From Escherichia coli (GTDB lineage Bacteria; Pseudomonadota; Gammaproteobacteria; Enterobacterales; Enterobacteriaceae): DNA of 64,000 nt. Positions 55,689-56,636 of this stretch are shown here, piece by piece. Below the pieces are notes generated by a model. It was not told the origin of the DNA, did not search any database, and was given only the letters and a program-made list of their open reading frames with translations. Within the stretch, counting starts at the first letter, position 1. Each line of letters begins with the position of its first letter. The stretch lies in assembly GCF_024223415.1 (NCBI RefSeq), contig NZ_CP100500.1, one strand, 5' to 3'. The translations under genes were made by a program, and so were the position numbers.

Positions 55689-56309
55689 CCATTACAAAGC
55701 CTATCTACGGGTGGGCTTGATAATGAAACCAGAATTTATTCTGGGAAACCAGTTACGGCAGTACAGCGAAACAACCCAAGCCAGTAAGTGGGGAAATAAC
55801 ACTGGCAGCCACTGAAAGATGAACCTCCTGCCTTATGGCAAAAAAGATTCTTTGTGGTGGCGGACTGATGGAAAGACATCGGTTATTGCAGAGACCATTC
55901 AATGAGTGGTCTCGACAATGGCTTATACCCTACACGGGATAACTTAACTGATATCCCTTTTAACGGATAAAGGTATTCAAGCCTGACATATCATGCGCTG
56001 TATCGTCGCCGTATTCCCGTATTAACAGAGACCGTAGCCCGACGGGGAACTCCTTCTGCGCGAGTGTGCGGGAATAATCAAAAACGATGCACACCGGGTT
56101 TTTACCGCGTTTATGGTTCGCGGGTTTGTCCCTCATGCTCGCCAGTCCGGTGCGATGGTGGAAGAAACCGGAAGCTGTATTACAGAAAGTGCTACTACTG
56201 TATCCTGATGCGATGTATGTAATGTGAGTCAGATAATGGCACAGGATGTGGTGATGTGGCAGTCTGGAACACAGGATATATTGTCAGAATAAGACCCGTA
56301 GGAATAAAA

Positions 56310-56636
56310 ATGAAAAGACGCCTTTCACTACTTTTTCTGTTATCTGCCCTGGCAGTGGGATGCTCGCAGCAAAAAGCTGATGAGCCCCGGCAATTAGTGA
56401 CGGTGTATCCACGATATCCGGAATATGCTGCAGCAAATTATATCAAGGGGCTGGTTGAGGTTAAGTTCGATATTGGTGCTGACGGGACTGTGACACGGAT
56501 CGTTTTTCTCCGCTCAGAGCCTCATAATTTGTTTCGTGATGAAGTGGTGAAGGCCATGGCGAAATGGAGATTTGAAAAGAATAGTCCCCGTCAGGGAGTG
56601 AAGAGACAATTTATCTTTACGCCATCACGTCCCTGA
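56310..56636 (+). CDS. TonB C-terminal-domain-like lipoprotein (108 aa from the ATG at 56310)
   Basis: Product is MKRRLSLLFLLSALAVGCSQQKADEPRQLVTVYPRYPEYAAANYIKGLVEVKFDIGADGTVTRIVFLRSEPHNLFRDEVVKAMAKWRF. The YP..A....GxV.V.F.I...G.V......S........A..A...W.F pattern matches the TonB_C fold. It is preceded by a lipobox. Confidence 0.6.
   Translation: MKRRLSLLFLLSALAVGCSQQKADEPRQLVTVYPRYPEYAAANYIKGLVEVKFDIGADGTVTRIVFLRSEPHNLFRDEVVKAMAKWRFEKNSPRQGVKRQFIFTPSRP

Follow-up and report, generated by a model that had tools for sequence, protein, structure and literature searches.

Llp of phage T5 and the Cor proteins of phages phi80, N15, HK022, mEp167 and T1 are inner-leaflet lipoproteins of the outer membrane that block entry by acting on FhuA from the periplasmic side; they share a fold of their own and work as a FhuA-specific allosteric lock (bioRxiv 10.64898/2026.03.26.714494). 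The Ton system can also be inhibited with pieces of TonB itself. The periplasmic TonB fragments 33-239, 103-239 and 122-239 are reported to inhibit Ton-dependent (ferrichrome) transport and to bring about iron-limited growth (cited in bioRxiv 10.1101/2020.01.05.895219). Here we describe a gene of a lambdoid prophage in a 64,000-nucleotide stretch of Escherichia coli DNA (contig NZ_CP100500.1, hereafter the window), located at positions 56310 to 56636 on the plus strand. Its product is a complete TonB C-terminal domain (CTD) joined to a lipoprotein signal, and nothing else.

Like Llp and Cor, this product is a small phage-encoded lipoprotein predicted to reside in the inner leaflet of the outer membrane. 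Unlike them, it has the unrelated fold of a TonB CTD, and as a decoy it would target the generic TonB box and thereby many receptors and colicins. Searches of Pfam, PHROG and PDB with the window protein returned only TonB_C or TonB, and the analogy to Cor and Llp drawn in a first-pass annotation of this DNA therefore holds at the level of function only, not of sequence or fold. The protein has the appearance of a natural version of the engineered TonB fragments, which are exported with a signal peptide and likewise place a free TonB C-terminal region in the periplasm. It differs from these in consisting of the CTD only, in being (as predicted) lipid-anchored to the outer membrane, in its divergence and in its modest native expression. 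With the Bor/Iss moron it has in common the slot between Rz and cos/terminase, an outer-membrane lipoprotein product, expression in the lysogen and, often, a place as divergent neighbour; there is no relation in sequence or fold, the strand is the opposite one, and regulation differs. Finally, relatives adjoin immunity genes co-directionally in Serratia and Pantoea, and the protection against bacteriocins proposed here is shared with colicin and pyocin immunity proteins. Classical members of that group disarm the toxic domain, either within the inner membrane or through binding to the nuclease, whereas a decoy would intervene at the earlier step of import and without specificity for one toxin.

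We propose that the lipoprotein acts as a decoy for host TonB and blocks the entry of TonB-dependent colicins and phages, a reading to which we give an even chance. A receptor's TonB box is bound by strand addition to β3 of the TonB CTD (PMC11658791), and the decoy would use the same β-strand augmentation on its β3 edge. Its lipid anchor would hold the domain within a few nm of the periplasmic mouths of TonB-dependent transporters, where it would compete with host TonB for the TonB-box strands of receptors (FhuA, FepA, Cir, BtuB and others) and of incoming group-B colicins. Because the decoy is unconnected to ExbB/ExbD, binding would do no work, and the energy-dependent entry of TonB-dependent colicins, microcins and phages of the T1 and phi80 type would be damped, at the cost of some loss of siderophore and B12 uptake. 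Being expressed by the prophage within the lysogen, the gene would act as a moron that gives heterotypic protection. Phage T5, which had initially been named as a target as well, infects via FhuA without a need for TonB; it drops out as a target and becomes a negative control.

The gene itself is not new as an object: annotations already include it, and a publication lists it as a moron. What is new is the purifying selection acting on it, the family of secreted CTD-only proteins of about 110 amino acids in Enterobacterales, the common post-lysis slot in unrelated phages, and the linkage to bacteriocin immunity.

A TonB C-terminal domain behind a lipoprotein signal

The features of the gene are as follows.

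56300-56303, plus strand: Shine-Dalgarno-like AGGA, 6 nucleotides (nt) 5' of the ATG (from the sequence; the phage 21 annotation has a ribosome-binding site at the equivalent position)
56310-56636, plus strand: coding sequence of the TonB-CTD-only lipoprotein, 108 amino acids plus stop (from the open reading frame, its translation and Pfam TonB_C), the same as "TonB family protein" WP_029400675.1 in E. coli B771
56310-56363, plus strand: predicted lipoprotein signal peptide M1-G17 with lipobox L14-A15-V16-G17-C18, codon of Cys18 at 56361-56363, Ser at +2 (from the sequence)
56406-56615, plus strand: TonB_C domain, residues 33-102 by Pfam and ordered from about residue 26 to 105 in the structure (Pfam, phmmer, AF2, Foldseek)

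In the list of open reading frames (ORFs), the gene appears on the plus strand as 56256-56636 with a GTG start and 126 amino acids. The ATG at 56310, which with the stop at 56636 gives 108 amino acids, is the best start. It was preferred over the GTG because of the AGGA six bases before it and because the RefSeq annotation of a 100%-identical genome uses the same start; the peptide quoted in the first-pass annotation, MKRRLSLLFLLSALAVGCSQQ..., also begins there. The product starts with MKRRLSLLFLLSALAVG-C, i.e., a lipoprotein signal peptide with an LAVGC lipobox. Written as MKRR-LSLLFLLSALAVG-C, the N-terminus carries a signal of 18 residues. The lipobox cysteine is kept in every full-length E. 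coli allele that was aligned and in most relatives, the exceptions having a signal of the signal peptidase I (SPase I) type. The residue at +2 is Ser in the window protein and Ser, Ala, Thr or Val in relatives, never Asp. According to the +2 rule of Lol sorting, lipoproteins with a residue other than Asp at this position go to the outer membrane. Judged from the sequence, the protein is thus expected to be lipidated and sorted by its Ser at +2 to the outer membrane's inner leaflet, on the periplasmic side. Of the earlier description as an outer-leaflet or periplasmic lipoprotein, the lipoprotein part stood and the outer leaflet did not. Only about 8-10 residues separate the lipidated Cys18 from the first ordered residue of the TonB_C domain.

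A TonB_C fold signature had been noted in the mature part of the protein, together with the suggestion of a hidden Markov model search with PF03544. This search gave E=2.6e-13 and 50.7 bits (cut-off 24.6) over residues 33-102, and TIGR01352 scored 48.6 bits (cut-off 27.1). With phmmer against PDB, the top matches were all CTDs of E. coli and Salmonella TonB, at E of about 1e-14. An ungapped alignment places residues 22-103 of the query on TonB 149-230 (residue n corresponds to TonB n+127), with 40% identity to E. coli TonB. On the other hand, the models for full-length TonB equivalogs (NCBIfam, PRK10819) reached 46-67 bits against cut-offs of 265-448, with only model positions of about 150-240 being matched. 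The N-terminal transmembrane anchor, the region that couples to ExbB/ExbD and the proline-rich spacer are all missing from the window protein, which bears out the first-pass description of a lipoprotein lacking the TonB spacer and anchor.

Structure prediction led to the same fold. With a 9-sequence alignment, AF2 gave a pLDDT of 54 and an unusable model; the 32-sequence family alignment used instead gave a pLDDT of 86.3 overall and above 95 within the domain, with the β3 strand present at residues 94-103. The top Foldseek matches of this model were TonB CTD structures, 1u07_A with TMt 0.91 and 2gsk_B (TonB bound to BtuB) with TMt 0.94 and 40% identity, at root-mean-square deviations of 1.1-1.3 Å. 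The best of these was 2gsk_B at 1.1 Å, whereas domain III of TolA appeared only at E>0.1. In the alignment, Y163/P164 of TonB correspond to Y36/P37, and F180, F202, W213, Y215 and F230 to F53, F75, W86, F88 and F103; these TonB residues, which we take to be functionally important, are kept. The window protein is thus homologous to the CTD of TonB (P02929, about residues 150-239), sharing its α-β-β-α-β fold (TM 0.91-0.94), the YP motif, the aromatic cluster and the WR[YF]E motif. It differs from TonB in that it lacks the transmembrane helix and the Pro-rich spacer and so cannot couple to ExbB/ExbD, in that the lipid anchor would attach it to the opposite membrane, and in ending 4 residues earlier.

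Selection, relatives and linkage to bacteriocins

The gene is under purifying selection and is a working gene, not a fragment. The ratio of nonsynonymous to synonymous divergence (dN/dS, Nei-Gojobori) was 0.11-0.35 in all 12 allele pairs with unsaturated dS; for the window versus the O157 allele, dS was 1.48 and dN 0.17. Matches to the gene were found in 1615 of 5426 complete E. coli genomes, fall into two allele groups (95-100% and about 73% nt identity), and carry the name "TonB family protein" at every match listed, where an intact ORF of constant length is annotated. Furthermore, the gene occurs in phage 21 ("TonB C-terminal domain protein"), ev017, Stx1a phages and the prophage Perceval of strain LF82 ("TonB fragment"). 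The Perceval copy is 96% identical, and the 317 nt upstream are nearly identical to those in the window.

Evidence on expression comes from the published RNA sequencing of Perceval, in which the TonB fragment gene is listed as a moron and was transcribed 8-fold over the prophage background in LB (Misson et al., PMC9928086). Its level, in log2 fragments per kilobase per million (fpkm), was 5.0-6.6 in 10 of 10 samples, to be set beside 2.3-3.7 for Rz, 2.3-4.3 for terS and 4.2-7.2 for host tonB in LF82; the gene was transcribed in lysogens in which the lysis and terminase genes on either side of it were silent (PMC9928086). In the comparison reported there, the log2 fold change was 7.1 for bor and 0.26 for the TonB fragment gene, and Perceval also bears the envelope and iron morons NmpC and SitABCD (PMC9928086). 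Because the upstream 317 nt are nearly identical, this evidence should carry over to the window gene.

A full HMMER scan of 1.84 billion representatives, combined with a profile search, identified single-domain TonB_C relatives of 105-130 amino acids and 30-47% identity in Klebsiella, Rahnella, Pantoea and Serratia. Most have a lipobox and a subset in Serratia and Pantoea has a cleavable signal of the SPase I type, which makes a free TonB CTD in the periplasm the common denominator of the family. The lipoprotein signal is retained over relatives of 35-95% identity in five genera. All family-invariant columns (P34, P37, D54, G59, V61, P71, F75, W86, E89 and P93) are identical in E. coli TonB. 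In prophage contigs from IMG/VR and in a genome of Rahnella, the late strand carries the gene straight after the holin, endolysin and spanin genes and before the terminase, in phages with endolysins (GH19 or lysozyme), terminases and tails unrelated to those of the window prophage. A general accessory benefit fits this variety of carriers better than a role in the cycle of one phage. Scans of viral contigs with the single proteins P0041 and P0084 gave no match.

A new clue to function is the company of bacteriocin genes. Four separate Serratia contexts, namely the chromosome of S. ureilytica, a plasmid-like contig bearing KfrA and toxin-antitoxin genes, S. grimesii and S. bockelmannii, have the TonB_C gene followed after 68 nt by a co-directional colicin immunity gene (PF03526) and then by a convergent pore-forming colicin (PF01024, E=2e-54). 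The module (L058 6001-8510; also L057, L062, L063, L072 and L073) encodes an immunity protein of the colicin E1 type, a colicin of 554-575 amino acids, and the signal-peptide version of the TonB_C protein. Its genes have diverged together (colicin 75%, immunity 73-93%, TonB_C 79-82%), and two Serratia loci (L059, L060) have the TonB_C gene at the same chromosomal site without a colicin. The N-terminus of the Serratia colicin reads ...SPDDG-DSMTV-TGD, in which DSMTV is a TonB-box-like motif; it is similar to the boxes that colicins B and D (DTMVV) and colicin M (ETLTV) have for TonB. In a Pantoea prophage (L064 2278-5324; also L065, L066), the lysis genes are followed by a 769-amino-acid S-type DNase bacteriocin, its immunity gene and the TonB_C gene, before the terminase, so that the bacteriocin effectively rides along as a phage moron. 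In a Pantoea island, 1.7 kb separate the TonB_C gene from one with a colicin domain. For a protective factor acting on import, one would expect just such co-directional adjacency to immunity genes, here those of two unrelated types of bacteriocin, and the contexts of the family probably speak for colicins no less than for phages.

Prophage slot and upstream region

The surroundings of the gene in the window comprise the following features.

54185-55182, plus strand: lysis genes, i.e., lysozyme 54185-54718, Rz (inner-membrane spanin, i-spanin) 54700-55182 and the embedded Rz1 (outer-membrane spanin, o-spanin) 54935-55141
55985-56172, no strand assigned: widespread non-coding prophage element, normally between divergent bor/iss and the TonB_C gene (from genome matches)
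55993-56309, plus strand: conserved 317-nt upstream region that accompanies the gene, presumed promoter and 5' untranslated region (from homology to phage 21, the O157 allele and Perceval)
56729-56751, plus strand: GC-rich hairpin, stem of about 8-9 base pairs, loop of 7 nt, then T-rich, about 90 nt past the stop (from the sequence and RNA fold)
57628-60037, plus strand: small and large terminase subunits, terS from 57628 and terL from 58052

The prophage region is 100% identical to E. coli B771, and its order on the plus strand is antiterminator Q, two tRNA genes, holin, YdfR, lysozyme, Rz/Rz1, two small ORFs, a gap, the TonB_C gene, terS and terL. The first-pass annotation had taken the gene for a prophage moron between the lysis genes and the terminase, in the bor/lom slot of lambda. 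The position agrees with the coordinates and the comparison with bor is apt, whereas lambda lom lies elsewhere. As for the moron itself, the gene is an accessory one between conserved modules and varies among related phages: it is present in phage 21, Perceval, O157 prophages and CFT073, and K-12 DLP12 has ybcV/ybcW there instead. This variation and the published listing of the Perceval copy both support the assignment. The upstream gap had been described as free of ORFs of at least 60 amino acids, and this is the case for 55689-56255, in which the longest ORFs are 58 (minus strand) and 52 (plus strand) amino acids.

Homology in the upstream region starts at 55994 with phage 21 and at 55993 with the 73%-identical O157 allele, and with the latter it ends at 56637, one base after the stop. 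This sets the bounds of a mobile unit, with its left edge at 55993 (phage 21 and the 73% allele) and its right edge at 56637 (O157 allele). The element at 55985-56172 has matches in 4590 of the 5426 E. coli genomes, in up to 11 places per genome, and 695 of the places are on plasmids. It is without annotation at nearly all matches listed and usually lies just 5' of bor/iss on the opposite strand; its neighbour is bor in DLP12 of K-12, and iss both in CFT073 and on a plasmid. Against the O157 allele, identity marks in this 5' part are visibly denser than in the coding sequence overall (73% nt). It may be a bor/iss regulatory region or a recombination hotspot. Rfam gave no match over 55100-57700, so that the upstream element matches no known RNA family. 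By eye, the alleles have only GATAAT-containing stretches in common, with no convincing -35 or Fur box, although no search aimed at Fur boxes was made. The hairpin at 56729-56751 folds with -16.8 kcal/mol (z = -1.66) and was not called in the terminator scan; we regard it tentatively as a possible weak terminator.

Some further observations concern the neighbouring DNA. Soon after Rz and a 50-amino-acid ORF (55170-55322), the plus strand has a strong terminator-like hairpin at 55356-55375 (8 pairs, 6 of them GC, with a T-run), through which late transcription must read to reach the TonB_C gene. The ORF at 55401-55688 encodes a hypothetical protein of 95 amino acids with no Pfam match; a 96%-identical copy in another prophage (L003 5782-6066) stands downstream of a 47%-identical TonB_C-type gene, and the ORF appears to be a small mobile ORF of the same moron region. 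Between the Q antiterminator and holin genes, tRNA-Met (CAT) and tRNA-Lys (TTT) occupy 52686-52839, where phage 21 has tRNA-Asn and tRNA-Thr. The prophage also contains the Hfq-binding RNA isrK (63.6 bits) directly adjoining a C4 antisense RNA (84.3 bits) at 44775-44963. The chromosomal small RNAs C0465, MicL and ES036 at 15316-15393, 29385-29692 and 33628-33670 indicate that the window up to at least about 34 kb is ordinary E. coli chromosome, with the prophage in its later part. Beyond the window, the J protein of the same prophage in B771 (L054 15876-16625) has about 30 final residues that were unmatched in 50,697 phage records, its best overall identity being 52%. The two small genes after J had no Pfam match, thus no match to the Cor family was seen.

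Weighing the decoy against other explanations

An unlikely, though mechanistically close, alternative is that the lipoprotein traps TonB itself. It would heterodimerise with the CTD of host TonB and hold TonB at the outer membrane, so that the Ton system would be damped likewise. Titration of this kind would take much less protein, TonB being far scarcer than the receptors, and the transcript level similar to that of host tonB suits a 1:1 ratio. The residues F202, W213, Y215 and F230, presumably the contacts of TonB dimers in vivo, are all retained. CTD fragments do crystallise as dimers (1u07 and 1ihr are among the matches; discussed in PMC7014051), but the physiological role of such dimers is itself unsettled (PMC7014051), heterodimers are without evidence, and capture of the colicin's own TonB box accounts at least equally well for the linkage with colicin and immunity genes. 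It is rather improbable, too, that the protein serves the envelope or virulence apart from any inhibition of Ton, for example as a partner of Bor/Iss in serum resistance, a tether that binds peptidoglycan or outer-membrane proteins, or a factor in host interaction. The divergent pairing with adjoining bor/iss over a conserved intergenic region in phage 21, Perceval and CFT073 would suit such a role, as would the other envelope and iron morons of Perceval. However, the window keeps the gene though bor is absent, relatives in other genera occur without bor, transcription does not track that of bor, and the conserved residues are the signature residues of TonB itself.

The PHROG family of the protein, phrog_1267, is labelled "Rz-like spanin" (E=2.1e-40), and in many unrelated phages the gene stands on the late strand right after the spanin gene. 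We nevertheless consider it very improbable that the protein is a lysis accessory or outer-membrane spanin component. The window has a full Rz/Rz1 pair that is complete without it, and phage 21 (as annotated) and L009, L011, L018, L021 and L041 have o-spanins of their own. Whereas o-spanins are short and proline-rich, this protein is a folded TonB CTD. Its transcription in lysogens takes place while the lysis genes are silent, and relatives lie outside prophages, beside colicin genes and in chromosomal islands. Identity as an o-spanin that would supply the partner of an i-spanin lacking one was also considered and rejected, since Rz1 is embedded in Rz. Given carriers with their own o-spanin and a gene that is on while the lysis genes are off, the label of phrog_1267 is most likely a positional mis-annotation, and it will spread into phage annotations. 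Least probable of all, to the point of being negligible, is a non-functional remnant, a captured piece of bacterial tonB that is merely carried along. Database names such as "TonB fragment", "partial tonB-like protein" and truncated hint at this, as do the identity to TonB of only about 40% and the missing energy-transduction parts. The dN/dS values effectively refute a decaying fragment, however, and the constant length of the intact ORF among the matches listed, the acquisition and retention of a lipoprotein signal across genera, and the transcription of the Perceval copy also speak against it.

The decoy reading is strengthened by the linkage to bacteriocin immunity and by the selection data, and several observations count against it. 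Some residues of TonB are not kept: Q160 is replaced by Y33 (Leu in the 70% allele), R158 by T31, R166 by Y39 and R204 by D77. We take these four to be implicated in recognition of the TonB box and in suppressor genetics; with their equivalents altered, specificity may differ from that of TonB, which goes against a simple equivalence of the two proteins. The Serratia colicin also has a ColA_N domain, a region that in colicin A is part of the Tol-dependent translocation domain, and its import route is therefore ambiguous. No obvious TonB box was seen in the first 140 residues of the Pantoea bacteriocin, and several family members are found in contexts without a bacteriocin. A scan of the plus strand upstream of the gene for a sigma-70 consensus yielded no site, and PADLOC returned no match for the window protein or three relatives. 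A decoy made in the lysogen should impair iron uptake, and at 8-fold over the prophage background its transcription is no more than modest. For the engineered TonB fragments, inhibition is reported to have needed overexpression (cited in bioRxiv 10.1101/2020.01.05.895219). Literature searches yielded neither a functional study of the phage TonB_C lipoprotein or of TonB-CTD-only proteins, nor direct binding or phenotype data for the lipoprotein.

For the family as a whole, we tentatively suggest, at somewhat less than an even chance, that secreted TonB-CTD-only proteins, whether lipid-anchored or soluble, form an unrecognised class of import-level immunity factors. They would be dominant-negative TonB decoys of mobile elements that act at the shared TonB-box step and not on one receptor or toxin. 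The elements concerned would be, with the same reserve, lambdoid prophages (in about 30% of E. coli), Serratia colicin modules and bacteriocin-carrying Pantoea prophages.

If the decoy reading is correct, about one third of E. coli strains, including O157:H7, CFT073 and LF82, would have their entire TonB system tuned by a prophage gene. Iron acquisition during infection would be affected, and so would sensitivity to group-B colicins, microcins, TonB-dependent therapy phages and siderophore-conjugate (Trojan-horse) antibiotics. It would also provide a natural, evolved inhibitor scaffold for the binding of TonB to the TonB box, which is already pursued as a drug target. For mobile elements and their hosts, it would add a strategy of exclusion and immunity that hits the shared step of energy coupling and not one particular receptor or toxin.

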